From NCBI GenBank assembly GCA_022703445.1, contig JAKLDR010000013.1, positions 2,599-66,598 on the forward strand: 64,000 bases of DNA, in the 5' to 3' direction. The position numbers and the translations under genes were made by a program. The notes under the pieces were generated by a model, which was given only the letters and a program-made list of their open reading frames with translations, had not been told where the DNA came from and made no database searches. Below are positions 32,689 to 51,150 of the stretch, one piece after another. The stretch is from Planctomycetota bacterium (GTDB taxonomy: Bacteria > Planctomycetota > SZUA-567 > JAKLDR01). Positions within the stretch are counted from its first letter, which is position 1. The number at the start of each line of letters is the position of its first letter.

Positions 32689-32829
32689 GAGCGAAAATCC
32701 TCCCCGGACCGGTGCGGCCCGGACCCCGGCAAGCATAGCGCCGGCCCGGGCTATTTCAAGAAGCCGGAGTGTTCCGTTCGCCCATGCGCACCTCCGACGC
32801 CAAGCCGTCGGAGGACGGCGGACCGGAGC

Positions 32830-33907: not shown

Positions 33908-34390
33908 TCAGTTGATCTGCCCGCGCAGCCTGGCAGCATAGTCGACCACGGCCAGTTCCTGCTCCTCGGTTTCGATGGAGAACGGCCTGAGCTCGCGCAC
34001 CCTGGCGATGGCCCGGCGCGGCTCCCAGCCCTGGCGCACCAGGTAGGATGCCGCCACTGTTCCGCTGCGGCCCAGCCCGGCTCCGCAGTGAACCAAGACC
34101 ATCCGGCCGGCCGCGTCCGCCTGGCGCACGATGAAATCCATGATCCTGTCGAGCTGGCCAGGCGTCGGCGCGGTGAAGTCCGGGATGGCCTCGTGCAGGT
34201 ACTCCATGCCCACGGCACGCACGGCGTCGACCTGGAGCGGCGAGGTGGTCAGCGACACGATCGCGCCGATCTGGTTCCCGCGCAGGAAAGCCAGGTCCTC
34301 CTCCAGCGTGCCGTAGAGACCCGGCCGGCTCATGACCGCGAGCTTCCCGGGCACTATCACCGTGAAGCTGCGGAGGCTGAAAGGTTTCAT
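33908..34390 (-). CDS. Dual-specificity (Cys-based) protein phosphatase
   Basis: ORF 33908..34774, started at ATG 34390, which overlaps the ligase stop (ATGA). HCX5R(S/T) P-loop VHCGAGLGRSGT. 160 aa. Confidence 0.8.
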   Translation of the reverse strand: MKPFSLRSFTVIVPGKLAVMSRPGLYGTLEEDLAFLRGNQIGAIVSLTTSPLQVDAVRAVGMEYLHEAIPDFTAPTPGQLDRIMDFIVRQADAAGRMVLVHCGAGLGRSGTVAASYLVRQGWEPRRAIARVRELRPFSIETEEQELAVVDYAARLRGQIN

Positions 34391-35853
34391 GACTGTCCTT
34401 CCGCGGCCATCTTCGCCAGGGCCTTCCGGTCGGCCTTGCCGGTCGGCCCCTTGGGCAGTTCCGCCAGCAGCACGAAGCGCCGCGGCACCTTGTAGCCGGC
34501 CAGTTCCCGGCGGCAGTGCGCGCGGAGGTCCTCGACGGCCGGCCCGTCGGCGCCGGGGCGGGGGACCACGAAGGCCACCACCTGCTCGCCGCGCTGCTCG
34601 TCGGGCGCACCCGCCACCCCGCACTCGGCCACCGCCGGATGACGGGCGACCGCCGCCTCGACCTCGGCGGGGTGGACGTTCTCGCCGCCGACAATGATCA
34701 GCTCCTTGATGCGCCCGGTCAAGGTCAGGAAACCGTCGGCGTCGAGCCGGCCGAGGTCCCCGGTACAGAGCCATCCGTCGGGGGTCAGCACCCGGCGGGT
34801 GGCCTCCGGCGCGCGGTGGTAGCCGCTCATGACGCTCGCGCCGCGGACCCGGACCTCGCCCTCGGCGCCGGCCGGCAGGGCCCCGCCCCCTTCGTCCGCG
34901 ATCCTGATCTCAAGGTGGGCCAGCGGCCGGCCGACCGTCCCCGGGCGGTTGGAGCCGGGCACGTTGAGCGCCACCACCGGCGAGCACTCGGTGAGCCCGT
35001 ACCCCTCGCAGATCGGCAGGCCGAAGACCGGCTCGAACTCCTCGCGCACCCGCGGCGTGAGCCGCTCGCCGCCGGAGACGATCAGGCGCAGCGCCGGCAG
35101 CGCGCGCGGCCGGGACTTCTGGGCCCGGGCCATGAGGCGGTACATCGAGGGCACGCCCACGATCACGCTCACGCCCTCGGCGGCGAGCTGTAGCGCCCCT
35201 TCGGGCGAGAAGCGGGCCATGGTCACGACCGAGGCGCCGATCAGGAGCGGCGCGATCATCGTGGTGGTCAGCGCGAAGGTGTGGAAGGGCGGCAGCGCCC
35301 CCAGGACGTGGTCCTCGGGACGGAAGCCGGCCGACTCGGCCGCGCCCAGGGCGTTGGCCGCCAGGTTCCGATGGGAGAGGCACACGCCCTTGGGCTCGCC
35401 GGTCGAGCCCGAAGTGTAGAGGATGACCGCCAGGTCGTCGTCGGAACGCTCCGCCGGCGGGTCCAGCGGCGCCCCGGCGGCGAGCAGCCTCTCGACGGCG
35501 AGATAGCGCGCGGCTCCGGCCGGCAACCGCTCCAGGCAGGCCTCGGAGGTGATCACCAGGTCGGCGCCGGAGTGATCCAGGACCGCGGCGAGTTCCTTGG
35601 GAGCCAGGAAGGTGTTGAGCGGCACGGCGGCGCGCCCGGCGGCCAGGACGCCGAAGAACCCGGCCACGAAGCCGGAGCAGTTAGGCAGGTAGATGCCCAC
35701 CGTCCCTCGGGCGGTGGCCGCCGCGACGTGCCCGGCGACCCGGCGCGCGGCGGCGGCCAGCTCCGTGTAGCTCCAAGCCCGTCCGCCGTCGATGACCGCG
35801 GTGCGCGCGGCGTTCTTCGCGGCGGAGTCGAGGAGGGCGCGGGCGAGGGGCAC
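34387..35853 (-). CDS. Acyl-CoA synthetase / fatty-acid AMP ligase (ANL superfamily)
   Basis: ORF 34387..36105. I start it at GTG 35853, 4 nt after the TAG of the upstream mini gene, because the upstream part of the ORF is W/R/G-rich junk overlapping that gene. Motifs: ILYTSGSTGEPKGV, EGYGLTE, TGDLGRLDADGFLTLTGRIKELI, and PKGPTGKADRKAL. Confidence 0.85.
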   Translation of the reverse strand: MPLARALLDSAAKNAARTAVIDGGRAWSYTELAAAARRVAGHVAAATARGTVGIYLPNCSGFVAGFFGVLAAGRAAVPLNTFLAPKELAAVLDHSGADLVITSEACLERLPAGAARYLAVERLLAAGAPLDPPAERSDDDLAVILYTSGSTGEPKGVCLSHRNLAANALGAAESAGFRPEDHVLGALPPFHTFALTTTMIAPLLIGASVVTMARFSPEGALQLAAEGVSVIVGVPSMYRLMARAQKSRPRALPALRLIVSGGERLTPRVREEFEPVFGLPICEGYGLTECSPVVALNVPGSNRPGTVGRPLAHLEIRIADEGGGALPAGAEGEVRVRGASVMSGYHRAPEATRRVLTPDGWLCTGDLGRLDADGFLTLTGRIKELIIVGGENVHPAEVEAAVARHPAVAECGVAGAPDEQRGEQVVAFVVPRPGADGPAVEDLRAHCRRELAGYKVPRRFVLLAELPKGPTGKADRKALAKMAAEGQS

Positions 35854-35857
35854 AGGC

Positions 35858-36130
35858 CTAGCCGCCCGAAAGTGACCGCGACCAGACGTGGCGCAGCACC
35901 GCAGTAGCCAGGAAGCCTGCCACCGCCACGCCCGCTCCCATGCAAATGCTGTTCGCGGACTTGCCCAGGAGTCTGGCCAGATGCTCCGGATCCGACGCCA
36001 GTCCGTGGGCATCCAGGTACCTCTGGGCCATCCACCGCCAGTACCCCCACCCAACCATGCCCATGAGCAGCCCCACCAACCACAGAGCCATCGGTGCCGC
36101 AGCAAGTCGAGCTCTGCTCAGAAGGGGCAT
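35858..36130 (-). CDS. Small membrane protein (two TM helices)
   Basis: ORF 35858..36223, started at ATG 36130, 17 nt after the pmbA stop. Hydrophobic segments MALWLVGLLMGMVGWGYW and ICMGAGVAVAGFLATAVL. Confidence 0.5.
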   Translation of the reverse strand: MPLLSRARLAAAPMALWLVGLLMGMVGWGYWRWMAQRYLDAHGLASDPEHLARLLGKSANSICMGAGVAVAGFLATAVLRHVWSRSLSGG

Positions 36131-36147: not shown

Positions 36148-37518
36148 CTAGAACTCCGTGGATCCCGTGAATCTGAACGCGCTGAGCTTCAGCGCCGGCA
36201 CGCGGGTCACGCCGCCGTCCCACTCGCCGCCCACGCCCTGGACTTCGGAGCCGACCTGCTCCACCCGGGACAGCGCGTCGAGCACCGACTCGGTGAAGCG
36301 CATGTTGCAGACCGGCCCGGCCACCCGGCCGTTCTCGATCAGGAAGACCCCGTCGCGGGTCATGCCGGTGATCACCGCCTTGGTGGGCTCGGCGACGTTG
36401 GTGTACCAGAAGCGGTTGACGAACAGGCCCTTCGCGGTCGAGGCGATCATGCCCGCCAGGTCGGCGTCGCCGCCCTCCATGACCACGTGCATGGGCAGCG
36501 CGCCGTGCGCGGAGAGCGGCCCGAAGGAGTGGCCGGTGGGAGCCGCGCCCGTCTTCTTGGCGGTGCGGCTGTTATGGGGCAGGTCGCGGGCCACGCCCTT
36601 CTCGACGAGGGTCAGGCGCTTGCGGGGCACGCCCTCGTAGTCGAAGGGCAGGGGCATGGCCGTCGGGTCCAGGCCGTCGTCCCGCAGGGTGATCTTGTCG
36701 CCCACGATCGGCGTGCCCATCCTGCCGGCCAGGCAGGAGCGCCCCTCCTGGTGGGCCTGGGCGTCGAAGCCCAGGTAGACCAGGAAGTCGACCAGCGTCG
36801 AGACCGCCCGGGGGGCCAGGATCACCGGCCACTCGCCGGGGTCAACCTTGCGCGGGCCGCGGGCCTGCAGGGCGGTGTCCACCGCCTCGCGCCCGAAGAT
36901 GGCCAGCCGGGCCGCGAGGGCGTCGACCGACCCGCCCGACCAGTCCTCCGAGCCGGCCGCGCCGTCGACCATGGCGGTGCAGGCCGCGCTGAAGGACGAG
37001 CCGGTGGCGTACTGGCGCACGTCGTTGCTGGTGGCCACGGCCAGCTCGAAGCCGCCGCTGGAGACCTTGCCGGAGGCCACGACGCCCTTCTCCCGGGCGT
37101 AGCCGGCGGCCCGGGCCACGAGGCGCGCGCGCGAGGCCGGCGACAGCGTGGCGGTCTTCTGGTCGCAGGCGCCCTGGATCTCCGGGGCCGGCGCACCGAC
37201 CGCCTCGGAGACCAGCCCCGGGAACTCCTTGTCCTCGGCGGCCTGGGCGGCGATGGCCGCGGCCAGGCGGGCGGCCTGGGAGATGCCCGTCCGGTCCAGG
37301 CGGTTGGTGGTGGCACCGCCGAGCTTCTTCCCGATGATCGCCGCCACCGTGACCGAGGCGTCCTCCTCGGCCACGTTCTGGTGGATGTAGTTGTTGGCGA
37401 AGCGGGTCAGCTCGCTGGAGCCGGCTGTCAGCCGCGCGTAGCCGGCCTTGGCCCCGGCCTTCTCGAGCTCGCCCAGGGCGCGCTCGAGGATGGAGAAGGA
37501 CCTGTCGCGACCGATCAT
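36148..37518 (-). CDS. pmbA: PmbA/TldE metalloprotease subunit
   Basis: ORF 36148..38268, started at ATG 37518, which overlaps the tldD stop (ATGA). The TldD/PmbA-family C-terminal region (GLFVNRFWYTNV..TGMTRDGVFLIENG) lacks HExxxH, as expected for the E subunit. Confidence 0.85.
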   Translation of the reverse strand: MIGRDRSFSILERALGELEKAGAKAGYARLTAGSSELTRFANNYIHQNVAEEDASVTVAAIIGKKLGGATTNRLDRTGISQAARLAAAIAAQAAEDKEFPGLVSEAVGAPAPEIQGACDQKTATLSPASRARLVARAAGYAREKGVVASGKVSSGGFELAVATSNDVRQYATGSSFSAACTAMVDGAAGSEDWSGGSVDALAARLAIFGREAVDTALQARGPRKVDPGEWPVILAPRAVSTLVDFLVYLGFDAQAHQEGRSCLAGRMGTPIVGDKITLRDDGLDPTAMPLPFDYEGVPRKRLTLVEKGVARDLPHNSRTAKKTGAAPTGHSFGPLSAHGALPMHVVMEGGDADLAGMIASTAKGLFVNRFWYTNVAEPTKAVITGMTRDGVFLIENGRVAGPVCNMRFTESVLDALSRVEQVGSEVQGVGGEWDGGVTRVPALKLSAFRFTGSTEF

Positions 37519-38963
37519 TTCACGACCCCCACCTGAACGTTCCTGAAGCGGGCCGGCGCCGTGCCGTGGCCCACGTGGGCGGTCTGCCCGGGCTGGCCCT
37601 TGCCGCAGTTCGGCGTGCCCCACATCTTCCAGTGGTCGCGCGAGCAGACCGCATCGCAGGAACCCCAGAACTCCGGGGTGATGCCGGTGTAGGTGGGGTT
37701 CTTGTACATCCTCCCGAGCCTGCCGCCGCTGATCTCCCAGGCGGCCTCGGTGCCGAACTGGAAGTTCAGCCGCCGGTCGTCGATCGACCAGCTGCGGTTG
37801 GTGGCCAGGAACAGCCCGCCGTCGGTGGCGGCCAGCAGGTCGTCGAACTTCCACTCCCCGGGGAGCAGGTTGATGTTGGTCATGCGCACCAGGGGGATCC
37901 GGCTCCAGCCGTCGGCGCGGGCCGCGCCGGAGCTGGCCAGCCCCAGGCGCGCGGCGCTCTCCCGGTCGGAGATGTAGCCGACGAAGACCCCGGCCTTGAT
38001 CACGTCGACGCGCTGCGCCGGGGTGCCCTCGTCGTCGAAGCCGAAGGTGCCGAGGCCCAGCGGCTCGGTGGCGTCGGCCACCACGTTGACGTGCTCCGAG
38101 CCGTACCGGAAGCCCCCGAGCTTCTCGGTGGTCAGGAAGCTCGTGCCGGCGTAGGCCGCCTCGGTGCCGAAGACCCGGTCGAGCTCTATGGGGTGGCCGA
38201 TGGACTCGTGGACCTGCAGGGCCAACTGCCCGCCGTCGAGGACGACGTCCCGCCGGCCGGCCGGGCACTGCGGGGCGTCGAGCAATTGCCGGGCCTCGGC
38301 CGAGACCCGCTCGGCGTTGCCGGCCAGGTCCATGGCCCGCACGTACTCGAAGCCGGCGGTGCCGAAGTTGCCCCGGAAGCTGTTGGGGTAGCTGCGCACC
38401 TGGAAGTCCGAGCCGCGCACCGCGGTGGCGGCGATGCCGGCGCCGGTCTCGGTGATCTCCTGCTCGAAGCGCACGCCCTCAGTGTTGGCGAAGTGGGTGC
38501 GCTTGCGGAAGATGCTCATGAAGGCCTGGGTGACGGGCAGCTCCGGAGCCCGCAGGCGCTTCTCGGCGGCGGCGAGCAAGCCCAGCTTCTCCTCGACGGA
38601 GACCTCGAAGGGGTCCTCGGCCACCGGCGTGCGGTACTGACCCTCGCCGAAGGCGCCGCCCGGCGCCAGCTGGGCCGGCTCGGAGGCGCGGACCAGGGAG
38701 CTGGCCTTGGCGATCCGGGCGGCCAGCTTGGCCACCCGCGCGGCCTGGCTCTTCTTGGACACGTCCGCCGCCGAGGCGAAGCCCCAGCAGCCGTCGATGA
38801 TCACCCGCACGCCCAGGCCGGCCGAGACGGCGCTGGAGGCCCCGGCCGGCTTGCCGTTCTTGACCTCGTAGCTCTCCGAGCGCTCGTCCACCAGCCGGGC
38901 CTCGGCGAAGGTGGCGCCGAGCACCCGGGCGGCGTCGAGGGCGCTCTTCAGTACGTCTTCCAT
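37515..38963 (-). CDS. tldD: TldD metalloprotease subunit
   Basis: 482 aa. It has HESIGHPIELD (HExxxH), a GTSFL segment and a C-terminal GxC..GKG region typical of TldD. Confidence 0.9.
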   Translation of the reverse strand: MEDVLKSALDAARVLGATFAEARLVDERSESYEVKNGKPAGASSAVSAGLGVRVIIDGCWGFASAADVSKKSQAARVAKLAARIAKASSLVRASEPAQLAPGGAFGEGQYRTPVAEDPFEVSVEEKLGLLAAAEKRLRAPELPVTQAFMSIFRKRTHFANTEGVRFEQEITETGAGIAATAVRGSDFQVRSYPNSFRGNFGTAGFEYVRAMDLAGNAERVSAEARQLLDAPQCPAGRRDVVLDGGQLALQVHESIGHPIELDRVFGTEAAYAGTSFLTTEKLGGFRYGSEHVNVVADATEPLGLGTFGFDDEGTPAQRVDVIKAGVFVGYISDRESAARLGLASSGAARADGWSRIPLVRMTNINLLPGEWKFDDLLAATDGGLFLATNRSWSIDDRRLNFQFGTEAAWEISGGRLGRMYKNPTYTGITPEFWGSCDAVCSRDHWKMWGTPNCGKGQPGQTAHVGHGTAPARFRNVQVGVVK

Positions 38964-38993: not shown

Positions 38994-39097
38994 CCAAAGA
39001 CACAAAGAACGGCCGGTGCCATCGGCTTGTGGTCCCGTTCCACCACGCAGTATCCCCTTGGGGCCCTCTTTAGTGTCTTGGTGTCTTGGTGGTTGAG
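38994..39097 (-). repeat. Post-stop hairpin element, copy 2
   Basis: On the minus strand, CTCAACCACCAAGACACCA (39097..39079) begins 6 nt after the TGA of the HIT gene and is identical to 23366..23384. GTGTCTTGG segments (39073..39089) can pair imperfectly with CCAAAGACAC (38994..39003). Confidence 0.5.
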
Positions 39098-39103: not shown

Positions 39104-39445
39104 TCACCCCGGCGGCCAGGACAGCTTGCGGCCGCCGATCAGGTGCAGATGGATGTGGAAGACCGCCTGGCCGGCCTCCGGCCCGCAGTTGAAGACCAGC
39201 CGGTAGCCGCGCTCGGCCAGGCCCTCCTGGCGGGCCAGTTCCCTGGCCGCCAGGTGCAGCCGGCCGACGATCGCGGCGTGGCCGGGCTCCAGGTCGTTGA
39301 TGGTTTCGATGTGCTCCCGCGGGATGATCAGGACGTGGGTCGGCGCCACCGGATTGATGTCCCGGAAGGCGACGATCTCGCCGTCCTCGAAGACCTTCTT
39401 GGCGGGGATCTGACCGGCGGCGATCTTGCAGAATATGCAGTCCAT
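39104..39445 (-). CDS. HIT (histidine triad) family nucleotide hydrolase/transferase
   Basis: MDCIFCKIAAGQIPA... N-terminus and the histidine triad HIHLHLIGG. 113 aa. Confidence 0.9.
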   Translation of the reverse strand: MDCIFCKIAAGQIPAKKVFEDGEIVAFRDINPVAPTHVLIIPREHIETINDLEPGHAAIVGRLHLAARELARQEGLAERGYRLVFNCGPEAGQAVFHIHLHLIGGRKLSWPPG

Positions 39446-39629: not shown

Positions 39630-40868
39630 TCAGGCCCTCCTCATCGCCAGGCAGGCGTTGTGACCGCCGAAGGCGAAGGAGTTGGAGAGGGCCAGGCGGA
39701 GGCCCTTGGCTTCGCGGGCCGAGCCGGGGACGCAGTCGAGGTCGCAGGCCGGGTCCTGCTCCTCGATGTTCATGGTCGGAGGGATCCGGCCGGTGTGAAC
39801 GGCTAGCGCCGCGATGGCCGCCTCGGCGGCTCCGGCGGCCCCAAGCATGTGGCCCAGCATGCTCTTGGTGCTCGAGACCGGCACGCGGTCGGCGGCCGCG
39901 CCCAGCGCCAGCCGGATGGCCCGCGTCTCGGCCGGGTCGTTCAAGGGCGTGCCCGTGCCGTGGGCGTTGATGTAGCCGACCGCGTCGACCGGCTCGCCGC
40001 TCATGGCCAGCGCCCCGGAGATGGCCCGGGCGGCCGGCTCGCCGGTGGGCTCCGGCGCGGTGATGTGGTGCGAATCGGAGGTCAGGCCCCAGCCGGACAG
40101 CTCGGCGTAGATGCGTGCGCCGCGGGCGCGGGCCCGCGCCATCTCCTCCAAGACCAACACCGCTCCGCCCTCGCTCATCACGAAGCCGTCGCGCCGCAGG
40201 TCGAAGGGCCGGCTGGCATGCACCGGGTCGTCGTTGCGCTTCGATAACGCCCCGCAGGCCGAGAAGGCCGCCATGGACAGCGGGGTGATGCTCGCCTCGC
40301 TCCCGCCGGCCAGCATGACTTCGGCTTGGCCGGTGAGGATGCACGAGGCCGCCTGGGCCACGGCCACCGCTCCCGTCGAGCAGGCCGCGGTCACCGCGAA
40401 GCTCGGGCCCTTGAGTCCGTGGGCCTCGGCCAGCGCCGCCGAGGCGGCGTTGATCATCATCTTGGGGATGGACAGCGGCGGCACCCGGTCGGGCCCGCGG
40501 TTGATGAGCCGGGTCTGGCCCTCCTCGATGGTCTCGATGCCCCCGGAGCCCGAGCCGACCAGCACGCCAGCGCGGTATGGGTCGAGCTTGTCCGCCTCCA
40601 GCCCGGAGTCCTTCAGCGCCATGGCCCCGGCGGCCACGGCGAACTGAACGAAACGGTCCAGGTGCCGGGCGGTTCGGACGTCCATCCAGTCGACCGGCCG
40701 GAAGTCGCGGGCCTCCCCGGCAAAGCGCGTGGCATAGGGGGCGGCGTCGAAGCGGGTTATTGGGCCAATGCCGTTGCGTCCGGCCAGCAACGCCTTCCAG
40801 ACCGGCTCGGCGCCGCAGCCCAGCGGCGTCACCCAGCCTATGCCGGTGACGGCGACGTTGCGGGTCAC
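39630..40868 (-). CDS. fabF: Beta-ketoacyl-ACP synthase II-type ketosynthase, coupled to the radical-SAM fusion gene
   Basis: ORF 39630..40964, started at GTG 40868, which overlaps the upstream stop (GTGA). N-terminus (M)TRNVAVTGIGWVTPLG. Catalytic triad context ACSTG / HITAP / NAHGTGT, and C-terminal NSFAFGGHN. Confidence 0.9.
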   Translation of the reverse strand: MTRNVAVTGIGWVTPLGCGAEPVWKALLAGRNGIGPITRFDAAPYATRFAGEARDFRPVDWMDVRTARHLDRFVQFAVAAGAMALKDSGLEADKLDPYRAGVLVGSGSGGIETIEEGQTRLINRGPDRVPPLSIPKMMINAASAALAEAHGLKGPSFAVTAACSTGAVAVAQAASCILTGQAEVMLAGGSEASITPLSMAAFSACGALSKRNDDPVHASRPFDLRRDGFVMSEGGAVLVLEEMARARARGARIYAELSGWGLTSDSHHITAPEPTGEPAARAISGALAMSGEPVDAVGYINAHGTGTPLNDPAETRAIRLALGAAADRVPVSSTKSMLGHMLGAAGAAEAAIAALAVHTGRIPPTMNIEEQDPACDLDCVPGSAREAKGLRLALSNSFAFGGHNACLAMRRA

Positions 40869-43800
40869 GACCGCACCACGGCCCCGGCCAAGAGCGGACG
40901 CTCCTCGACGAAGTAGCGCCGCAGCGATGCCTCGTCGAGCGGGCGGCGGGCGCCGCGCAGCCACTCGCGGAGCTCCCCGGCGCGGTCCAGGAAGAAGCGG
41001 TAGAGGTTGCGGTCGCCGTCGAGATGGCCGAAGTGCTCGCGGTAGGTTTCCCAGGCGGCCACCAGATCGAGGCCCAGCAGCACCGCCGGCGCGCCGCCGA
41101 CTTTGGCGTAGGCGCGCTCCGGTCCGGCCTCGGTCATCAGCAGCATGCGCTTGTAGAAAGATACGTGCCGGGGGTTCACCGTGATCAGGAAGTCGGTGGC
41201 CCCCTCGAGGTGATGGGCTACCAGATAGGCCAGCTTGAAGAGGTGCTTCATGATCTCCGCGCCCCGGCGCAGATCGGTTTCGATGCTTACCAGACTGACG
41301 ATCTCGCAGAGCTTGCGGCCGCCGGCGCGCAGCCCGTCGAGCTCCGACCGGTAGAGTTCGTCGGCCGGCAGCCCAAGCGGCGAGTCGAAGACCAGGGTCA
41401 AAGCCGCCACCGGGACGGACTGGGTTCGGGAACTGCCCGCCGGCTCCTGCCGTTCGACCAGCAGCGTGGTCGTCCCGGGCAGCGCGTCGTGCAGCCCGTA
41501 CCAGAGCTCCTGCGCGTTGGGCCCGGCATAATCCTTCCCGCGATAGACCCGGTAGGCCAGGCGCCAGGCCTTGCGGCGGTCCTCGGCGGAGGCTGCCACC
41601 CGGATCGAATAGGCCCCGTCAGCCCCGAAGCGGTAGCCGGCAGAAGTATGCCCGTCCTGCTCCTCCAGATTGCGCAGCGCCTCGGTCAGCCGGCTCCTCA
41701 TGACGCGCTCCCTACTGTCCGGGAACCCGGCCTGCTCCATCCCCGCCGGGGCCGGAGCTTCCGGCGGCATCCGGCGGGCGAACGCATAACCCTTCGCGGC
41801 CTCGGCCGCCGCCGGACGGCTCTCCCCGGCTGGGGCCTGCTCCCTGACGGATTCCGCCCTGCGTCCATGGGCCGCCAGGCGGGCCAGGGCCAGCCGGGCC
41901 CGGGCGAGCAGCGAGAAGACCGTCACCGCCAGCCCTCCCTTCATCCGGTCCGGGCGCTGGTCGCAGCCGGCGCAGACCGCGCCTGGCAGGTGCGCCTCCT
42001 TGCGGGCCATCAGGCTGGCGATCGAATCGGTCAGCACGTTGCCGCGCGGGGCGCGCACCGCCTGGTCGTTGCAGCAGATCGAGTCGCCGGCGGCGGTGAT
42101 GAACAGATGCGCGTTCCACATGCACGGCAGGCTGAAGCTGCGCACCAGGTCCAGCACCTCCCAGACCTTCGGGAAGAACCTGCGATAGGAGATGCTCATG
42201 TTCACGCGCACGCCGTTGACCGCCCGGCCGTTGAAGGCCCGGACGAGGTCCGGGTAGAAGTCCACCGAGCTGCCGCGGCTGCGGACGAGCCCCGAGCGGT
42301 TCGAGGTCGCCGGGAAGAGCACCAATTCGACCTCGCCGAGCCCGGCGCGCTCCGCCTCGCGGGTCAGGAAACCGACCGTCTCCGGGAAGCCGCGGCGGAC
42401 CATCTCTCGCTCCGGCGGAGAGAGATGGAAGCACAGCCGCGGGATGCGGCCTTCGGCGCGCAGCTCCATCGCCCGGCGGATCCCGGCCTTGGCGGTTTCG
42501 AGCGTCTCGGCGCCGCGCTCCGGACGGCCGAACATCAGCCGGCCGTAGTCGGCGGGCTCGGTCGTCGGGAAGGAGACGATCAGGGTGAGCCGGTTCCCGG
42601 CCACCGCCTCGAGCACCCCGGGGACCAGCAGCCGCTGGCCGTTGGTCACCACCGAAACCTCAGGTGCCGGCACCGGCGCCGCCCAGTTGCGGAGCATGGC
42701 GCCGAACATGTCCATCCGCTCGCGGAACTCGGGGTGCAGCGTCGGCTCGCCGTCGCCGGAGTTGGCGATGTAGCGCACCCGGACCCCGGCGGCCGCGGCC
42801 TGCTCCACCCGGGCGATCAGCCGCCCGGTGACCTCGCGCGGCTGATACTCGCGCGGCCCCTTGTAGCCGGCCTTGTTCACCCCGCAGGTCTGGCAGTTGC
42901 AGTTGCAGATGCCGTGGACCAGGCTGTTGTTCAGCGACAGAGGCCGGCGGGTGCGCATGGTGCAACCGGCTGGCTCCAGACCGGCGAGCCCCCTCACCCG
43001 CCGGCTGCTGAGCGCGAAGGCGGCGCGGCGCAGGAGATTGAACCCGGTCAGCATCTGCAGTCTGCGGATCAGGATGAAAAGCCTCCAGAGGGGCTGCCCC
43101 GGCGCCCAGCGCCGGAGGACCGAATTGGCCAGGACCAGCAGGCCCATCGGCGTGTTCTCGTCCTCGTCGTACATGAGGAAGTTGGCGTGCCGCAGCGCCT
43201 CACGCTTGGTCAGGGCCTTGACGGCGTCGAGGGATATGCCCCGAGGCTGGAAAGCCACCGGGTGGAGGAAGTTGTCCCCGGTCTCGGCGGCGCCCTCGGC
43301 CCTGAGCCGCTCGGCAACCGGCGAACCGCTGTAGACCCGCAGGCCCACGCCGATGTCCACCAGGTCCCACGGCGCCGCCGCCCGACCGATGGTCGCGAAC
43401 GTCTCGGCAAGGGTTGCGGGCGTCTCGTCAGGGGCTCCGACCAGCAGGAACCAGTGGACGGCAATGCTCCGCTCGTGCAGCAGGCGGCCGGCGCGAAGCA
43501 GGGCGTCCTTGCGGAAGTTCTTGCCCAGGCTGCGCAGCGTGGCGTCGCATCCGGATTCGGCCCCCAGGTCCACGTCCCGGAACCCCGCCGCCTGGAGCAG
43601 ATCGGCCAATTCCTCGTCCACGGCTCCGGGGTTCAGGCCCATGGTGTGCAGCTGCAGGTCGAGCCCGCGGCCGGCGATCTCCCGGAGCACGGCCTTGCAG
43701 TGCTCCAGCGGGATGTTGAAGGTGCTGTCCGTGAACTCCAGCCTGCGGATCCCCGACTCGCGCACCAGTTCCTCGATCTCGGCGGCCACCCGCTGCGGCG

Positions 43801-44473
43801 AACGCAGCCGCCAGGCGCGGCCCTCGATTCGGTTGTAGGTGCAGTAGGTGCAGCCCAGCGCGCACCCGCGCTTGGTCTGGATCTGCAGCGGCGACCCGGC
43901 CCGGACGTAGGGCTTCAGATCGAGCCAGCGCCAGGCCCGTGCGGCCGGAAGTTCGTCCAGGCGCTCCACGCACATCGGATCGTTGTTCTCGGTTATGCGG
44001 CCATCGAGGAGGCGGACCAGCCCGCCCATGCCGTCCAGCGGCTCCCCGGCCGAAAGCCGGCGCAGGAACTCCACCATGGCCGCCTCGCCGTCGCCGCGGA
44101 TGGCGTATTCGAGATCGAAGAACCTCAGCATCTCGGCCCCACTGATGCCCACGGCCGGGCCCCCGATGACGATGGGGCCGGGGAAGACCCGCTTCAACGG
44201 CTCGATGGCCTCCTCGCGAACGGCATCGAGCAGGAACCGCGTGCTGTGGCCGGCACAGTTGTCGATGTTACGAATGCCCACCCCAACCGCGTCGGGACGA
44301 AGATCCGCCACTGCCGCCGCAATGCTCCGCGCCGGATCGCGCGAGAAACACAGGTCAAGCACCCGCACCTCATGCCCGGCCTGCTCAAGCGCCGAGGCCA
44401 CACAGCACAGACCGAACGGGATCACCGGCCATGGCTGGTGGAAGCGGTTCGAGTTGATCAGCAGCGTGCGCAT
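40865..44473 (-). CDS. Triple-fusion protein: B12-binding-type radical SAM + second radical SAM (SPASM/twitch-like) + FeeM/LuxI-like N-acyltransferase domain
   Basis: ORF 40865..44512, started at ATG 44473 (AGGAGG 6 nt upstream). Domain 1 is a Rossmann-like N-terminus plus CALGCTYC (43841..43864). Domain 2 has CNCNCQTC (42884..42907), SGDGEPTL and a late Cys cluster CCNDQ..CAGCDQ. Domain 3 (last ~260 aa) has RKAWRLAYRVYRGKDY...VNPRHVSFYKRMLLMTEAGPERAYAKVGGAPAVLLGLDL, resembling long-chain N-acyl amino acid synthases. There are no stops between domains. Confidence 0.8.
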   Translation of the reverse strand: MRTLLINSNRFHQPWPVIPFGLCCVASALEQAGHEVRVLDLCFSRDPARSIAAAVADLRPDAVGVGIRNIDNCAGHSTRFLLDAVREEAIEPLKRVFPGPIVIGGPAVGISGAEMLRFFDLEYAIRGDGEAAMVEFLRRLSAGEPLDGMGGLVRLLDGRITENNDPMCVERLDELPAARAWRWLDLKPYVRAGSPLQIQTKRGCALGCTYCTYNRIEGRAWRLRSPQRVAAEIEELVRESGIRRLEFTDSTFNIPLEHCKAVLREIAGRGLDLQLHTMGLNPGAVDEELADLLQAAGFRDVDLGAESGCDATLRSLGKNFRKDALLRAGRLLHERSIAVHWFLLVGAPDETPATLAETFATIGRAAAPWDLVDIGVGLRVYSGSPVAERLRAEGAAETGDNFLHPVAFQPRGISLDAVKALTKREALRHANFLMYDEDENTPMGLLVLANSVLRRWAPGQPLWRLFILIRRLQMLTGFNLLRRAAFALSSRRVRGLAGLEPAGCTMRTRRPLSLNNSLVHGICNCNCQTCGVNKAGYKGPREYQPREVTGRLIARVEQAAAAGVRVRYIANSGDGEPTLHPEFRERMDMFGAMLRNWAAPVPAPEVSVVTNGQRLLVPGVLEAVAGNRLTLIVSFPTTEPADYGRLMFGRPERGAETLETAKAGIRRAMELRAEGRIPRLCFHLSPPEREMVRRGFPETVGFLTREAERAGLGEVELVLFPATSNRSGLVRSRGSSVDFYPDLVRAFNGRAVNGVRVNMSISYRRFFPKVWEVLDLVRSFSLPCMWNAHLFITAAGDSICCNDQAVRAPRGNVLTDSIASLMARKEAHLPGAVCAGCDQRPDRMKGGLAVTVFSLLARARLALARLAAHGRRAESVREQAPAGESRPAAAEAAKGYAFARRMPPEAPAPAGMEQAGFPDSRERVMRSRLTEALRNLEEQDGHTSAGYRFGADGAYSIRVAASAEDRRKAWRLAYRVYRGKDYAGPNAQELWYGLHDALPGTTTLLVERQEPAGSSRTQSVPVAALTLVFDSPLGLPADELYRSELDGLRAGGRKLCEIVSLVSIETDLRRGAEIMKHLFKLAYLVAHHLEGATDFLITVNPRHVSFYKRMLLMTEAGPERAYAKVGGAPAVLLGLDLVAAWETYREHFGHLDGDRNLYRFFLDRAGELREWLRGARRPLDEASLRRYFVEERPLLAGAVVRS

Positions 44474-44529
44474 GTCGGCCTCCTGCGCGGGGGGATCAAA
44501 GGCCACCTCCAACTCTCAGTCCCCAGTAA

Positions 44530-44545
44530 AGCAATGAATATTCCA
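44530..44545 (-). promoter_or_regulatory. Candidate sigma54 (-24/-12) promoter of the fusion gene
   Basis: Minus strand TGGAATATTCATTGCT: GG and GC have exactly the spacing of TGGCAC-N5-TTGC. The element ends 56 nt upstream of ATG 44473, in an AT-richer gap, and a divergent sigma54 activator gene is adjacent. Confidence 0.4.
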
Positions 44546-44676
44546 CCCGTCAGCAATATGCATCATGCCGTTTAGCGCCGACTTGCGACCTGCCTGCTGA
44601 TGTGTAGCACCAATGATCGCTTGAAACTACGCCAATAATGTGCATATTCTATGCGTATCGAGAGGATGTCTTGGCG

Positions 44677-46974
44677 ATGAGGAAACACCTGCACCCGGTC
44701 GTCAAAGCCTACGGCGAGGGCCGCACGGCCTTCTTCGAGGCTCTCAAGGTCAATCGAGCGGGCCGGGACCGGGACGTCCTCAACGCCATCGTTCTGTTGG
44801 CTAGGGCCCTGAAAACCAAGCAGCCGTACGATGAGGTGCTCAAGACGGTCGAGTCGGTCGACATCCGCAACTGCGACCACAACCTACTGGCGATCTTCTA
44901 CCTGTACCGGACGCACCTCTCGCTGGCCCTGGACCGCCTGGCGGAAGCCTCCATGCTCTGCGACCGCGTCACGGAGCTGACCGGGCCGGACACCCCCGCG
45001 GCCCTGGTGGCGGCGAACCTTCACATTGCGGCTGCGGCCGCCCTGCGCGTGGGTCGAAAGGACCAGGCCGTGGAGCTCAACCGCCGGGCCCTGGCTGCCC
45101 TGCCGCGAAATTCTCCGCGCTTCCCGATGCTCTACAGCGACCTGGCCTGCTTCCAGGCGAACGTGGAGACCTTCGCGGAGATCGAGGAAGAGTACCGCGA
45201 GGTCGTCCGCAACCCTCGGTACGAAGACATGCTCGACTGGCGCGAGGTCATCTACCTGATCCACTACGTAAAGACCGGCCAGATCGAGAAGGTGGCAACC
45301 ATCGACCGCGCCCGCCTGGCCAAGCTTCCTCCGGATACGGTGGCGGAGACCAATCGGCTGCTGCAGCTTACCGAGGTCCTGGCCGGCCGCGCCGGCGGGG
45401 ACCTGCCACCATGCTTCGCCGCCATCCGCGAACTCCTGGCTGGCCGCCCCGAGCCGGCGCTGAGTGCGGCCCGCGAGGACGTCAAGACCAACACCGGCTT
45501 CCTCTACGGCACCGACTTTCAGGATTTCAACCTGGTCCGCTGCGAGTTGGCCACCCGCCGGGCAGGGGCCGCGCGCCGGTTACTGCGCCTGCGCCGGGAG
45601 CGCGGCAACACCCACCACCTGGACGACTTCTTCCTGGCCCGCGCCGAACTGCTCGACGGGGACTGCGGCGAGGCCGCACGGCTCTTTTCGGCCGCGTACC
45701 GGGCCTGCGAGCGATACCAGTCCCTGCCGCGGCTGGACATCGAGGTGCGCATGGCCTGCGAGCTTTCCGCCGCCGACGCCATGCGCCTGACCCGGGCGGC
45801 GCTGACCGCGGCGCCCGCCGGCCTCCGGCCCGGGCTGAAGACTGCCTCCGCACTACCCGCGCCCCCACTGCAGCCGCCTTCGACACAGCCGTCCGGCTCG
45901 GCGCGTCTCCTGGGGCCGAGCGACGCCATGCTCGCGCTACGCGAGGCCATCCACCGCGCCGCCAGGCTCGACGTGCCCGTCCTGATCACCGGCGAGACCG
46001 GCACCGGCAAGGAGCTGGCCGCCCGTGCCATACACGAGGACGGACCGCGCGCCGGCGAGCCCTTCCTGGCGGTCAACTGCGGCTCGATCGCCGAGGGCCT
46101 GCTCGAGTCGGAGCTCTTCGGTCACGTCAAGGGGGCCTTCACCGGGGCCACCGCCAGCCACCAGGGGCTCTTCGAGGCCGCCGGCAAGGGCACGGTGCTG
46201 CTGGACGAGATCGGGGACATGCCCCTGCGGCTGCAGGTGGCGTTCCTGAGGGTGCTCGAATCCGGCGAAGTCCGTCCGGTGGGCAGCGCCTCGGCCCGGA
46301 AAGTCGCCTGCCGGATCCTGGCTGCGACCAACATCTCCCCGGAGCAGCTGGCCGATGCCGGCCGCTTCCGGCAGGACCTGCTCTTCCGCCTGCGGCGACT
46401 GGAGATCGCCGTGCCCCCGCTGCGCGAGCGCCCCGATGACATCCTGGCCCTGGCCGGGCACTTCCTGGCCGAGGGCCGCGCCGACGGGGCCCGCCCGGTG
46501 ATGAGCCCGGAACTCCGCTCGGCGCTGGCTGCCCACCCCTGGCCGGGCAACGTCCGGGAGTTGCGCAACGAGATGGAGCGCATGCGCTTGATGAACTCGG
46601 ACCAGCCGGCCTACGACCTCAGCCACCTCGACCCCCGGATCGCCGCCGGCCAGCCGGTCCAGGGGCCGGCACCGTCCCCGACCCAGGCCCCGGCCGCGGA
46701 TTCGGCCCCGGAACCGACCACGGCCGCTTCCGCCGGACGGAGTCTCCAGCACGGGCGCTCGCCAATGCGCCGGCTCAAGGAGCTGCGCGACCTCTTTCGC
46801 AGCCACCGGAGTATGACCCGGGCGGAGGCCGCCGCGACGCTCGGAGTATCGGCCAACACCGCCACCAAGTACCTCCAGCAGCTCGCCGCCGAGGGCCTCA
46901 TCCTCCGGATGGAACCCAACGCCTCGCCGCGGACCCACTACTTCGAGCTGACCGAGGACAACCGGCAGAAATAG
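44677..46974 (+). CDS. Sigma54-dependent transcriptional activator with long N-terminal helical-repeat sensor region
   Basis: ORF 44638..46974; ATG 44677 is preferred (GAGAGGA upstream) and 44638 is possible. AAA+ core [25 protein letters not shown] (GHVKGAFTGA), LDEIGDMP, and RFRQDLLFRL..PPLRER. The first ~400 aa are TPR-like with no receiver domain. C-terminal HTH-like TRAEAAATLGVSANTATKYLQQLAAEG. Confidence 0.85.
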   Translation: MRKHLHPVVKAYGEGRTAFFEALKVNRAGRDRDVLNAIVLLARALKTKQPYDEVLKTVESVDIRNCDHNLLAIFYLYRTHLSLALDRLAEASMLCDRVTELTGPDTPAALVAANLHIAAAAALRVGRKDQAVELNRRALAALPRNSPRFPMLYSDLACFQANVETFAEIEEEYREVVRNPRYEDMLDWREVIYLIHYVKTGQIEKVATIDRARLAKLPPDTVAETNRLLQLTEVLAGRAGGDLPPCFAAIRELLAGRPEPALSAAREDVKTNTGFLYGTDFQDFNLVRCELATRRAGAARRLLRLRRERGNTHHLDDFFLARAELLDGDCGEAARLFSAAYRACERYQSLPRLDIEVRMACELSAADAMRLTRAALTAAPAGLRPGLKTASALPAPPLQPPSTQPSGSARLLGPSDAMLALREAIHRAARLDVPVLITGETGTGKELAARAIHEDGPRAGEPFLAVNCGSIAEGLLESELFGHVKGAFTGATASHQGLFEAAGKGTVLLDEIGDMPLRLQVAFLRVLESGEVRPVGSASARKVACRILAATNISPEQLADAGRFRQDLLFRLRRLEIAVPPLRERPDDILALAGHFLAEGRADGARPVMSPELRSALAAHPWPGNVRELRNEMERMRLMNSDQPAYDLSHLDPRIAAGQPVQGPAPSPTQAPAADSAPEPTTAASAGRSLQHGRSPMRRLKELRDLFRSHRSMTRAEAAATLGVSANTATKYLQQLAAEGLILRMEPNASPRTHYFELTEDNRQK

Positions 46975-46990: not shown

Positions 46991-48028
46991 ATGAACCGGA
47001 CCGAAGATATCCGCCGGGACCTCCAGAACGTCCGGAACACCACCGGCGAGGACGAGGGTGCCGGGCCCTTCGCGCTGCTGACCGAGCGGGATCACCCGCT
47101 GGTGGCGGCGGAGCGGCTCAGGGCCCGGTGCCGGCACCCGCTGACCTTGGCCTTCTGCGTGGCGGCCCCGCTACTGACCCTGGCCGCCATCCGGGCCATG
47201 CCCGTCGCCGAACAGCTTCCGGAACTGGCCAGCCTCTCCCGGAGGGCGCTGGACTTCCTGGCCGCCTTCGTCGCCCTCTGGCCCCTGGCCATGGTCATGG
47301 GCGCGGCCTGGCGCGCGGCGGCGGCAACTCTCGCCGAGGGCGTAGAGGAAACCGCCATGCAGTTGGTGCTCACCCCGCTGCGCAAGCGGACCATCGCCGC
47401 CGCCAAGGTGTTGCCGAACGTCCGGCCCTTCCTGTGGGGGATATTCGCGACGTTGCCGCTCTACCTGCTGGCCGGGGGGATGGAGCCCTTCCTGTTCTCA
47501 AACGCCATGCCTTCCCCGTTCGTCCTCTGGCCGTTCCGGGCGCCTGTGGGGGTCATGGCCCTGCTGTTTGGCGGGCCATACGAGCAGACCGGGCTCTCGC
47601 CGGCCGGGGCCGCGGCTGGGGCGCTGATGGCCCTGACCGACCTGGGGCTGGTCTGGGCGGCCGCCCACTGGGGCGCCGGCCTGGCCGTCAGGGTCAACAG
47701 CCTGGTGGTGGTGGTCCTGCGCCTCCTGCTGCGGCTGATCCTGCTGGCGACCGCCCTGGCGGCCTATCTGATACTGGCACTGCTCCTGGGCCTGGCCATC
47801 TTCCCGGCGGCACAGTGGATGTTCGGCCGGGGGGAGCTCCTGTCCACGCTGCTGGGCACCGCCTCGATGCTATGGCTCTGGTGGCTCTTCCCCCTGCGCA
47901 ACGCGACCCGGCGTTGCCTGGCGGATTTCACCTGGTTCGACCGGCTGGCCATGGACCCGGACGACCCGTCGCTGCGCAACTCGCTGCGGATGGCTGCCTG
48001 GTGGTGGTACGACGGGCGGAGGGCGTGA
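46991..48028 (+). CDS. Polytopic membrane protein of unknown function
   Basis: 345 aa with at least 6 hydrophobic helices. It starts 17 nt after the activator gene stop. I recognise no family motif. Confidence 0.6.
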   Translation: MNRTEDIRRDLQNVRNTTGEDEGAGPFALLTERDHPLVAAERLRARCRHPLTLAFCVAAPLLTLAAIRAMPVAEQLPELASLSRRALDFLAAFVALWPLAMVMGAAWRAAAATLAEGVEETAMQLVLTPLRKRTIAAAKVLPNVRPFLWGIFATLPLYLLAGGMEPFLFSNAMPSPFVLWPFRAPVGVMALLFGGPYEQTGLSPAGAAAGALMALTDLGLVWAAAHWGAGLAVRVNSLVVVVLRLLLRLILLATALAAYLILALLLGLAIFPAAQWMFGRGELLSTLLGTASMLWLWWLFPLRNATRRCLADFTWFDRLAMDPDDPSLRNSLRMAAWWWYDGRRA

Positions 48029-48232: not shown

Positions 48233-49657
48233 TCAGCGCAGCTTCCGCAGCGCCCAGAGGAGCGACTGGACCTCGCCGTGGCGGCCCTCCCCGAAGCGCA
48301 GGGAGTCGTCCGCGTGGCGGTCGCGGCCCCAGGCCTCGAGCGCGCGGCGGAAGAGCGCCGCGACGCCCTTAGCCGCCGACTTCCGCCGGCCGGCCGCGCC
48401 GTAGCGGGCGACGGCCAGGAGCGCCTCGGCCGAGATGATCACGTCCCCGTAGCGCTCGCGGTTGCGGCGCACGGCCCGGCGCGCGGCTCTGAGCTCCGCC
48501 AGGACCGGCCCGAGCTGCCCGGCCAGCAGCGCCAGCTGCCTCCGGTCCTCCGCCGTGAAGGGCTCCTCGCGGCAGACGCCCTTCATGGTCCGGTCGTGGA
48601 GCCGCTGCTCGATGCCGCCGCCGAAGAGCGCGGCCAGCGCCGCCCCCGCCTGCCGGCCGTCGGCCATCCCGTAGAAGCCGCGGGCGAAGCGCTCGGCGAA
48701 GCGCGGGTCCTCCCCGCCGGCGGTGGCCAGGTGGCCGAAGAGGGCCAGGCCGTAGTCGATGGCTCCCGGAAGATAGCGCCACGGGCACCAGACGGTGTTG
48801 ACCAGACCGGACAGCCCCTTGCCCCGCCGGCGCTGGGGGAGGCTCCGCGCGACGGTGTTCCGGAGGTTGGCCAGGTTCATGGCGTTGGGGGCGATGCGCG
48901 TGCCATAGCAGACCGTCGCCGGGCAGGCCACCGTCTCGAAGCCGGCGTCCAGGAGCAGCGCCGCCTTGGGCGACTCGTACTCGGCGATGTACTGCCAGTT
49001 GAACATGAGCACGTCGCGCCGGAAGTTCTTCATGATCCTGGGCTCGTGGACCACATGGTCGGCCCACATGGCCGGGCGGCGCCCGAGCTTGCGCACGGTC
49101 CCGTGCACCCAGGCGGAGTGGGCCGCGAAGCGCTGCCAGGCCTCGCTCCCCGCCCCAAAGCTGCGGCGGCAGCGCGGGCACTTGCCGAACTCGACCTCGT
49201 CGAGCCCCACGTGGATGACCGGGTGGGGGAAGATCGCGGCGGTGTCGCGGAGCAGGTCGGCGATGATCTCGCGGGTCTCGGGGTGGCTAGGGCAGATGGC
49301 GTTGAAGCCCCACTGGTGGTCGACCTGCTCGCCGAGGTGGCGGTACCTGGGGTGCGAAGTGATGAGCGCCGCGTGGCCCAGGCACTCGATCTCGGGCATC
49401 ACCGCGATGCCGTGCCGCGCGGCGAGAGCGACGAACCGGCGCATCTCCTCCGGGGTGAAGGCCCCCGGCGTGGCCAGCTCCGGACGCGACGGGAAGACCA
49501 GCGCGCAACGCTGGTCATCGATGAGATGGAGGTGGAGCAGGTTGTAGCCCCACTCGGCGAGCCTGGGGAGCAGCGCCTCGTAGTAAGAGCGCCGCTCGGT
49601 TATACGGCCGAGGTCGAGCATCACGCCACGGAGTTCGAATGCGGGCTTGGCGGTCAC
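48233..49657 (-). CDS. Glycoside hydrolase family 20-like (beta-N-acetylhexosaminidase catalytic domain)
   Basis: [10 protein letters not shown] opening of the TIM barrel, [16 protein letters not shown], and the HVGLDEV catalytic D-E pair context. GTG 49657 overlaps the regulator stop (GTGA); an alternative start is ATG 36 nt downstream. Confidence 0.75.
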
Positions 49658-51114: not shown

Positions 51115-51150
51115 GCCGCTGCTCCTCGCCGGGGCTCCGCTGACGACAAC

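Follow-up and report, generated by a model that had tools for sequence, protein, structure and literature searches.

FeeM-family N-acyl amino acid synthases act on free amino acids, and the known ones are free-standing proteins of ~200-300 aa, none of which has been reported to be fused to or clustered with radical-SAM enzymes. Planctomycetes have N-acyl amino acid synthase genes and N-acyl tyrosine products, and the stieleriacines of their aerobic members are methylated, alpha,beta-dehydrogenated N-acyl tyrosines (PMC7293339). The action of radical-SAM enzymes on ketoacyl (fatty-acid-derived) lipids is almost unknown, the proposed ladderane and jawsamycin cases being the only ones named in a 2026 review (PMC13459092). 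Both kinds of enzyme are joined in a 64,000-nt stretch of DNA from an uncultured anaerobic member of the Planctomycetota (assembly GCA_022703445.1, contig JAKLDR010000013.1, positions 2,599 to 66,598), which is referred to here as the window. One gene of this stretch encodes a cobalamin (B12)-binding radical-SAM domain, a second radical-SAM domain that is labelled MID, and a FeeM-type synthase, and its end overlaps the start of a ketosynthase (KS) gene (Table 1). The reading that we favour, with a probability of about 0.55, is that this is a genuine single-polypeptide fusion representing a conserved, uncharacterised module of anaerobes, which would make a radical-SAM-tailored N-acyl amino acid and would be regulated by sigma-54.

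Table 1. Positions, in window coordinates, of the fusion gene, its parts and the genes and elements discussed with it.
Feature	Position	Strand	Remarks
Triple-fusion gene, B12-radical-SAM / MID radical-SAM / FeeM	40865..44473	-	1,202 codons + TGA stop, no internal stop
Module 1 (residues 1-490)	43004..44473	-	Cobalamin-binding 17-136; radical-SAM core 200-360
Putative read-through linker (residues 491-505)	42959..43003	-	From former B12-enzyme open reading frame to Met506
Module 2, MID (residues 506-860)	41894..42958	-	SPASM/twitch-like; CX3CX2C and SGDGEP motifs
Ala/Pro-rich linker (residues 861-945)	41639..41893	-	No family match
Module 3, FeeM-type N-acyl amino acid synthase (residues 946-1202)	40868..41638	-	Pfam core 969-1136 (41569..41066)
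FabF-type beta-ketoacyl-ACP synthase (KS)	39630..40868	-	412 aa; TIGR03150 536 bits (cut-off 493.75)
Predicted sigma-54 -24/-12 element, TGGAATATTCATTGCT	44530..44545	-	TGGAAT-ATTCA-TTGCT; ~57-72 nt upstream of ATG
Divergent sigma-54 enhancer-binding activator	44677..46974	+	765 aa; Sigma54_activat 205 bits; no receiver domain
Fatty-acid-CoA/ACP ligase-like AMP-binding enzyme	34387..35853	-	Long-chain fatty-acid-CoA ligase models 410 bits, below cut-off

The first-pass annotation, made from the letters of the DNA, had described one uninterrupted frame with three parts. This layout is borne out by the absence of stops and by the Pfam and NCBIfam matches, and all the motifs that had been quoted are present: CALGCTYC (43864..43841), CNCNCQTC (42907..42884), SGDGEPTL (42760..42737), CCNDQ (42076..42062), CAGCDQ (41974..41957) and VNPRHVSF (41179..41156). 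The open reading frame (ORF) is counted from an ATG, a TTG start 13 codons upstream being a possible alternative, and its codon-position GC content (0.71/0.50/0.90) is the typical coding pattern in this ~70% GC DNA. Antisense to it lies an open frame of 1,183 codons (41024..44575, + strand), which is read as a high-GC shadow and not as a gene, because the third-position GC of 0.90 lies in the minus-strand frame. The same 1,202-aa product is encoded in at least three independent assemblies with differing contig ends, namely ENA ERZ27257498 (k141 contig), JGI 3300028644 and NCBI GCA_035390085.1 (whose contig is apparently the NODE contig of ENA ERZ761563), with a DNA identity of 99.985-100% across 14-18 kb. 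An artefact of assembly or a frameshift had been considered; the identical frame in independent assemblies rules this out and makes the fusion a property of the organism, a Planctomycetota metagenome-assembled genome (MAG).

The CX3CX2C motif of module 1 (CALGCTYC, residues 204-211) places it in the Radical SAM superfamily. Pfam finds PF04055 Radical_SAM in two stretches of the fusion protein, of which residues 200-360 are the stronger (95 bits; cut-off 29.5), and the B12-binding family PF02310 at residues 17-136 (50.2 bits; cut-off 32.1), so that the first two of the expected matches were found, at 95 and 50 bits. With its B12-binding domain ahead of the core, module 1 is by sequence a class B (cobalamin-dependent) radical-SAM enzyme, and cobalamin binding is predicted. 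Methyl transfer via methylcobalamin is the default chemistry of class B, and the class B methylases (TsrM, HpnR, PhpK, TokK, CysS) share the domain organisation of module 1; TsrM is also the closest solved structure by sequence (6wte, E 2e-36). Unlike them, however, module 1 reaches only ~128-150 bits, far below the cut-offs of these families (148.5 bits against 500 for TIGR04428, the TsrM family), and the mechanism of TsrM is not transferable, because this enzyme is a non-radical outlier and an atypical aromatic C-methylase. The best named family is TIGR04072 (rSAM_ladder_B12, "lipid biosynthesis B12-binding/radical SAM protein"), which is matched over profile positions 1-407 of 443 with 262 bits, below the cut-off of 360; seven relatives of module 1 score 262-346 bits, all below the cut-off too. 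We take this family to be, most likely, that of Kuste2803 of the anammox fatty-acid/ladderane clusters, and we know of no member with a demonstrated function. Both TIGR04072 and module 1 are B12 and radical-SAM enzymes of Planctomycetota-type lipid loci adjoining FabF-type ketosynthases; they differ in that the window score lies below the cut-off and that amxACP, FabZ and a desaturase were not seen at the window locus.

On its own, the B12 subfamily also occurs in Desulfobacterota, Omnitrophota, Bacteroidales, Clostridia, Aminicenantes and Verrucomicrobiota. Its neighbours there are a class I methyltransferase (14 loci, also as a fusion), an MMPL transporter, LolA-like and DUF1302 proteins and, further, a second GNAT, acyl ligases or an NAD_binding_4 enzyme of the fatty-acyl-reductase family. 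Since a fatty chain is common to all these contexts, the B12 step is assigned to the acyl group. Eight loci of Desulfobacterota, Omnitrophota and one planctomycete (L012, L018, L063, L064, L050, L046, L016 and L009; L-numbers are labels of the compared loci) carry the B12 enzyme, several of them with FeeM, and have as neighbours an MMPL transporter with a sterol-sensing domain, LolA-like and DUF1302 proteins, a methyltransferase of large size and a second GNAT, which resembles autoinducer synthases; together they form an apparent lipid-export cluster. The GNAT of the Desulfobacterota loci matches the LuxI-type family PF00765, unlike the window protein. In Bacteroidales MAGs (L030-L033) the B12 enzyme, here without FeeM, adjoins an FAD_binding_4 oxidoreductase, an NAD_binding_4 enzyme and a methyltransferase; these contexts suggest that the subfamily acts on fatty chains in several lipid classes.

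It could be argued that the module serves bulk membrane lipids in the manner of the ladderane clusters: an unusual acyl chain, branched or cyclised, would be built by the B12 enzyme together with the KS, and FeeM would only off-load it or convert it into an ornithine-lipid-like aminolipid. The host belongs to the Planctomycetota, the nearest named family is TIGR04072, and the anammox fatty-acid clusters also hold FabF paralogues (PMC2649909, PMC13459092); the MMPL, LolA-like and DUF1302 genes of related loci, and one MID relative fused to a GT2/ceramide-glucosyltransferase-like domain, point in the same direction. We nevertheless regard this as unlikely: the TIGR04072 cut-off is missed by the window protein and by 7/7 relatives (262-346 against 360 bits), no acyl carrier protein (ACP), FabZ or desaturase was seen among the annotated genes around the window gene or in related loci, and the presence of one regulator per cassette and of several paralogous cassettes per genome looks more like specialised metabolism.

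MID alone gives marginal matches to viperin-, MoaA- and maturase-type radical-SAM families and reaches no curated family. It belongs to a rare family, of which an exhaustive HMMER search of 1.84 billion representatives returned 34 proteins at E <= 1e-10. In its alignment C18/C22/C25 and G68-x-G70-E71 are invariant or nearly so, and the four C-terminal Cys (MID 279, 295, 329 and 332) are invariant; the auxiliary Cys of the fusion protein are residues 784, 800/801, 834 and 837. PF04055 is matched by eight scanned relatives with 28.5-41.9 bits, at or over the cut-off of 29.5 in seven of them. The AlphaFold2 (AF2) model of MID (pLDDT 92) is matched by Foldseek, with a probability of 1.0, to SuiB, DesII, SkfB, anSME, ChlB, MoaA, BtrN and GDGT-MAS (an enzyme that forms C-C bonds in lipids), at 12-17% identity and TM-scores of 0.53-0.59 (lower, 0.35-0.44, for BtrN and GDGT-MAS). 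Because of these invariant motifs, the PF04055 matches of its relatives and the similarity of its model, MID is identified as a radical-SAM enzyme. Two PF04055 matches and possibly a SPASM domain had been expected: the second PF04055 match is weak in the window protein alone and is carried by relatives and fold, the structural comparison did retrieve SPASM/twitch radical-SAM structures, and PF13186 (SPASM) has no match in the window protein and a weak one (E 0.006) in one relative. With the SPASM/twitch enzymes (anSME, BtrN, DesII, SuiB, SkfB, MoaA, GDGT-MAS/Tes) the model shares a partial TIM-barrel core and a C-terminal Cys-rich domain that may hold an auxiliary cluster, whereas its low identity, the absence of a peptide-recognition domain and its occurrence mostly fused or adjacent to FeeM set MID apart as a separate family. 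A free radical-SAM/SPASM gene in the L002 operon was considered as its orthologue and rejected, the similarity being generic only (E 0.027).

These structural neighbours include SuiB, SkfB and ChlB, which are maturases of RiPPs (peptides made by the ribosome and modified after translation); the B12 domain has weak matches to RiPP C-methylase families, and a TldD/PmbA pair lies 0.7 kb downstream of the KS. One could therefore imagine a precursor peptide acted on by a B12 C-methylase, a SPASM cross-linker and a GNAT acyltransferase, with TldD/PmbA as leader protease. Several observations make this route very improbable. No conserved small ORF accompanies the MID, FeeM and B12 genes (the triad) in any lineage, the sole recurring one being an antisense shadow; the radical-SAM motif of MID starts at its residue 18, which leaves no room for an N-terminal peptide-recognition domain; TldD/PmbA is absent from every related locus and sits after a terminator-like site; and FeeM-family enzymes take free amino acids.

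Module 3 is a genuine and full-length FeeM-family domain, matched by PF21926 with 138 bits (cut-off 27; E 3e-40; profile positions 2-158 of 158), as anticipated for the C-terminus, where a FeeM-like GNAT had been proposed. The FeeM crystal structure 2g0b is matched at E 1e-8, the Glu of KLCEIVSL being aligned with the Glu of LAEVVQF. This residue, which is at least 90% conserved among 15 family members, is presumably the active-site Glu of the FeeM structure. The isolated domain has no match to TIGR03694 (PEP-CTERM/exosortase-associated) at E <= 0.1, its remaining matches being PRK14852 at 83 bits and marginal others, and the Pfam search of the window protein gave none to LuxI-type PF00765. 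Acyl-ACP-dependent N-acylation, the expected chemistry of FeeM-type synthases, is predicted for a domain with the full FeeM profile and the conserved Glu aligned.

An alignment of the B12 domain was used to scan genomes, one for each species, in which all ORFs were classed by the three window domains, and an 8-sequence MID alignment was used to scan metagenomes. MID, FeeM and B12 genes are neighbours in Fermentibacterota (Aegiribacteria, Sabulitectum, Fermentibacteraceae), Victivallaceae, Kiritimatiellae and Planctomycetota. The genome loci comprise eight of the type [MID-FeeM][B12], five [MID][FeeM][B12], one [MID][FeeM-B12], one [B12][MID..] (Kiritimatiellae) and one with B12 divergent from MID-FeeM; [B12-FeeM] fusions without MID are found at four other Planctomycetota loci. 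The metagenomes added 15 loci, mostly with a MID-FeeM fusion followed by B12, and MID and FeeM occur together in 10 metagenome loci, fused in seven. FeeM-MID and GT2/ceramide-glucosyltransferase-like-MID fusions also exist. That the three enzymes recur as neighbours or fusions in nearly every permutation is strong evidence for a common pathway. No second triple fusion was found in the B12-alignment genome scan, the search of 1.84 billion representatives or the metagenome scan. The window gene stands at one end of a wider family with varying fusions, in which MID-FeeM plus a separate B12 enzyme is the usual form. The module had been called self-contained: the three enzymes do form a functional unit, but one that is part of this wider family and not unique to the window. 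It had also been asked whether the fusion and the KS coupling recur: the modules recur as neighbours and fusions, KS coupling is seen in two other genomes, and the triple fusion was found in one population. On the short (3.4 kb) contig of P0012 (L081), the MID-FeeM protein closest to that of the window, no B12 gene and no KS adjoins it.

The origin of the fusion can be traced in its junction. Free MID and MID-FeeM proteins begin with MRTRRP(L/I)S(I/L)NNS, which corresponds to window residues 506-517, and the B12 enzymes of relatives terminate near the position of residues 491-505. Since Met506 matches the start of the free proteins, the window gene is explained by read-through: a B12-enzyme gene lost its stop codon in front of a MID-FeeM gene that already existed. 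The second linker has parallels, as the MID-FeeM proteins of relatives show an unmatched gap of similar length between the two matches. A recent and non-functional read-through, that is, an incipient pseudogene or a population-specific accident in which only the separate domains matter, would be consistent with the restriction of the triple fusion to one population and with a 15-residue junction that resembles translated former intergenic DNA. This is the least probable of the explanations considered here, given that the catalytic motifs of all three domains are intact, the whole ORF has a third-position GC of coding type (0.90), independent assemblies agree on the frame, and every pairwise fusion of the modules exists elsewhere, so that fused forms are apparently tolerated and recurrently retained.

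The overlap of the fusion gene with the KS gene was read directly: the fusion ends in TCG TGA, the GTG of the KS starts at 40868, and the shared GTGA (40868..40865) is a 4-nt overlap. The KS translation holds the Cys-His-His motifs ACSTG, HITAP and NAHGTGT and belongs to FabF. It has ~14 close relatives (61-72% identity), followed by thousands of generic FabFs at <=57%. The contexts of five close relatives were inspected, and all are FeeM or aminotransferase (alpha-oxoamine-synthase-like) cassettes, none being a fab operon; as these close relatives all lie in specialised cassettes, the KS is viewed as a dedicated partner of acyl-amino-acid condensing enzymes. In L082 and L084 the gene right after an orthologous FeeM is an orthologue of the KS (63-72% identity), which supports the earlier notion of a private ketosynthase; a search from the B12 side had made the coupling appear non-conserved, and this was reversed by the search from the KS side. 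In L082 the activator is divergent from two B12 radical-SAM genes, one of them HpnR-like (a lipid C-methylase-like enzyme), followed by FeeM (373 bits against the window domain) and the KS (72% identity). L085 is a locus of the same type on a contig cut just upstream of the KS, and the order in L084 is FeeM, KS, FAD-binding oxidoreductase. In L083, and in L086 with its near-identical copy L087, the KS adjoins a class I/II aminotransferase and a reductase, the cassettes being KS / aminotransferase / NAD reductase (L083, 7001..10547) and ECF-like sigma (528 aa) / aminotransferase / SDR / KS (L086, 1118..6071). In the same lineages, these KS-aminotransferase cassettes may serve to make amino-lipids of a sphingoid- or capnine-like kind.

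Regulatory features, which the first-pass annotation had overlooked together with the sensor genes of related loci, accompany the module. The element TGGAATATTCATTGCT is the only TGG-N8-TTGCT match in the whole window on both strands, and with its GG-N10-GC pattern and the adjacent AAA+ activator the operon is by sequence sigma-54-dependent, with a predicted promoter. L002 and L011 have equivalent -24/-12 elements ahead of their homologous genes or operons, and near-matches were seen by eye in L001 and L007. The N-terminal 400 aa of the activator form, in the AF2 model, a helical TPR-like superhelix (best Foldseek TM 0.56, MalT domain III); this model was built from a shallow 4-sequence alignment, and the TPR match is generic. 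A search with this N-terminal domain returned only three proteins, and homologous domains adjoin the FeeM cassettes L052, L002, L077 and L082 and the MID genes L092 and L101. Three cassettes of a divergent activator with FeeM, each with different tailoring, are seen in L077 (ERZ724098 NODE_73, 1..13542), a related planctomycete; positions 12754..16022 of L001 belong with them. Those of L077 consist of a radical-SAM/SPASM gene with a GT1-FeeM fusion; of FeeM alone; and of a 2-oxoacid_dh-type acyltransferase with a GT2-MID fusion and FeeM, and they look like an expanded paralogous family. L002 additionally has a sulfotransferase and a reductase. In L079 (1..10178, GCA_036768975.1) four tandem sigma-54 activators of the same family, one of them a 1,461-aa double, lie beside a CMAS-like methyltransferase. 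These planctomycetes thus hold a greatly enlarged set of such activators.

Sensors of another type are found in Fermentibacterota, where the genes right after the triad encode a FIST protein and a hybrid histidine kinase in 13-14 genome loci and four metagenome loci; L039, L042, L057, L089, L094 and L096 are among the loci with a FIST protein and a cytoplasmic PAS/hybrid histidine kinase after MID/FeeM/B12. No transmembrane segments were found in the FIST protein or in the hybrid kinase. FIST proteins paired with hybrid kinases are also known as nitric-oxide (NosP-type) sensors. A FIST protein with a cytoplasmic hybrid kinase also constitutes VpsV/VpsS, a quorum-sensing input of Vibrio cholerae (PMC4398556).

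These arrangements raise the question of autoinducer-type signalling, in which a diffusible modified N-acyl amino acid would be sensed by the adjacent regulator in a positive feedback loop, the sensor being the TPR-like activator domain in Planctomycetota and the FIST protein with its hybrid kinase in Fermentibacterota, in analogy to LuxI/LuxR and CqsA/CqsS. We consider this a tentative possibility, which has real support as a sub-reading of the favoured one but is clearly less probable than the reading that leaves the role of the product open. As in LuxI/LuxR, CqsA/CqsS and VpsV-VpsS, an acyl-transferring synthase is encoded beside a dedicated cytoplasmic sensor or regulator, and this holds in lineages with unrelated sensor types. 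The divergent activator recurs at several paralogous FeeM cassettes with differing tailoring (L077, L001, L002, L052, L082), sigma-54 promoters lie upstream of synthase genes, and the conserved Fermentibacterota block consists of the triad and the sensors only. All the sensors are without transmembrane segments, which fits a membrane-permeant lipid ligand, the FIST and kinase pair has the architecture of VpsV/VpsS (PMC4398556), and in Planctomycetes the stieleriacines, which are N-acyl tyrosine derivatives, have an effect on biofilm communities (PMC7293339). Unlike in the quorum-sensing pairs, however, the window synthase has no family-level homology to LuxI or CqsA, and the regulators are sigma-54 activators and FIST proteins. 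Ordinary secondary metabolites and stress-induced lipids, too, commonly have a regulator encoded within their clusters. Relatives hold an expanded activator family, members of which also occur beside non-FeeM genes, the tandem activators of L079 weakening an exclusive pairing of regulator and synthase. The generic TPR-like fold match is a further point on this side, and since FIST/hybrid kinases are known as nitric-oxide sensors, the ligand need not be the product. Finally, the B12/FeeM clusters of Desulfobacterota and Omnitrophota hold MMPL, LolA-like and DUF1302 export genes typical of envelope lipids.

The favoured model of a radical-SAM-tailored N-acyl amino acid can be put in steps. Its architecture, authenticity, gene linkage and regulatory elements are observed; the chemistry, with its radical steps, acceptor amino acid and product, is inferred as follows. 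Expressed from the sigma-54 promoter under the dedicated divergent activator, the translationally coupled FabF-type KS would supply or size an acyl-ACP on housekeeping AcpP. The B12 radical-SAM domain would act on the fatty chain, C-methylation of an unactivated carbon being the most probable change, and the FeeM domain would move the acyl group onto the amino group of an amino acid. MID, aided by an auxiliary Fe-S cluster, may carry out a second radical step on the substrate or product of FeeM, for example a dehydrogenation or the formation of a C-C or C-X bond. Because a sigma-54 promoter with a dedicated activator appears to drive expression, the product would be a lipoamino acid under regulation, whether as a lipid of the envelope or as a signal that diffuses, and "lipid or signal", as it was first worded, stays the right level of claim. 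For stieleriacines, tailoring by a conventional SfmM2-like methyltransferase and a dehydratase has been proposed, whereas the window module has radical-SAM enzymes; it is a speculative analogy that these might do the methylation and dehydrogenation without oxygen.

Several points weigh against this model. Module 1 stays under the cut-off of every curated family, and because of this and of TsrM being its closest structure, its target could be an amino acid or its chemistry other than that of a methylase. No characterised member of the MID family or of the B12 subfamily was found. The triple fusion is confined to one population, and as relatives arrange the domains differently, it does not reveal in which order the steps occur. 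Conservation with the triad does not extend to any ACP, transporter or acceptor-supplying gene, and FeeM is followed by a KS in only two other genomes, most triad loci and all those of Fermentibacterota being without one.

Two further genes of the window had been proposed to feed the module, and neither proposal fared well. The ACP gene at 22224 passes the NF002151 and TIGR00517 cut-offs and is thus of the canonical, housekeeping AcpP type; it lies 17 kb away among unrelated neighbours, and no ACP gene is found beside any of the about 70 related loci. It is followed by an aminoglycoside-3-N-acetyltransferase-like gene (22224..23359, +), an unusual neighbour for a housekeeping ACP. The AMP-binding ligase is located 3.8 kb downstream of the KS on the same strand, with HIT, TldD/PmbA and a terminator-like site in between, and ligases lie near the B12 enzyme in four of the about 70 loci (L008, L010, L029, L064), so that its link to the system is weak. 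TldD/PmbA, HIT, the ACP and the unknown ORFs at 30272..33687 were rejected as parts of the system, having no counterpart in these loci. The HIT-family gene (39445..39104) and a terminator-like hairpin (39023..39008) stand upstream of the divergent TldD/PmbA metalloprotease pair (38963..36148, -), which is not conserved with the module and is followed by a 77-aa ORF without a family match (36091..35858, -). On the other side, a 345-aa protein with ~4 hydrophobic segments and no family match follows the activator (46991..48028, +) and is not conserved in related loci, and at 51174..48233 (-) the gene of another sigma-54 activator, this one of the response-regulator type, shares an overlap with that of a GH20 hexosaminidase. 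Farther away (9150..20917, +), and unrelated to the module, are a CHASE2-domain adenylate/guanylate cyclase, a 1,907-aa bacterial alpha-2-macroglobulin and a PBP1c-type penicillin-binding protein; the pairing of the latter two is common.

A literature search found nothing linking FeeM-type synthases with radical-SAM enzymes or sigma-54, nor N-acyl amino acids with cobalamin, and no characterised pathway with this three-way fusion, in agreement with what had been surmised at first. The locus would therefore represent an N-acyl amino acid pathway with unprecedented radical-SAM tailoring, its triple fusion being so far unique to one population. The system is compact, with its three enzymes on one gene, so that expressing this gene in another host could bring to light a new lipoamino-acid scaffold and show what two uncharacterised radical-SAM families do, and as the B12 family is the nearest relative of the anammox ladderane-cluster enzyme, the results could inform the long-standing ladderane problem. 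A bolder and doubtful extension, somewhat less probable still than simple autoinduction, is that the fusion protein makes a bacterial signal of a new class, a fatty-acyl amino acid that has undergone two radical reactions independent of oxygen and is sensed by TPR-activators in anaerobic Planctomycetota and by FIST/hybrid kinases in Fermentibacterota, the paralogous cassettes with their radical-SAM enzymes and glycosyl-, sulfo- and methyltransferases being orthogonal channels. If true, it would be an anaerobe counterpart of LuxI/LuxR-type communication. The consistent pairing with dedicated sensors also offers an entry into the chemical signalling of uncultured anaerobic phyla, which is essentially unexplored.

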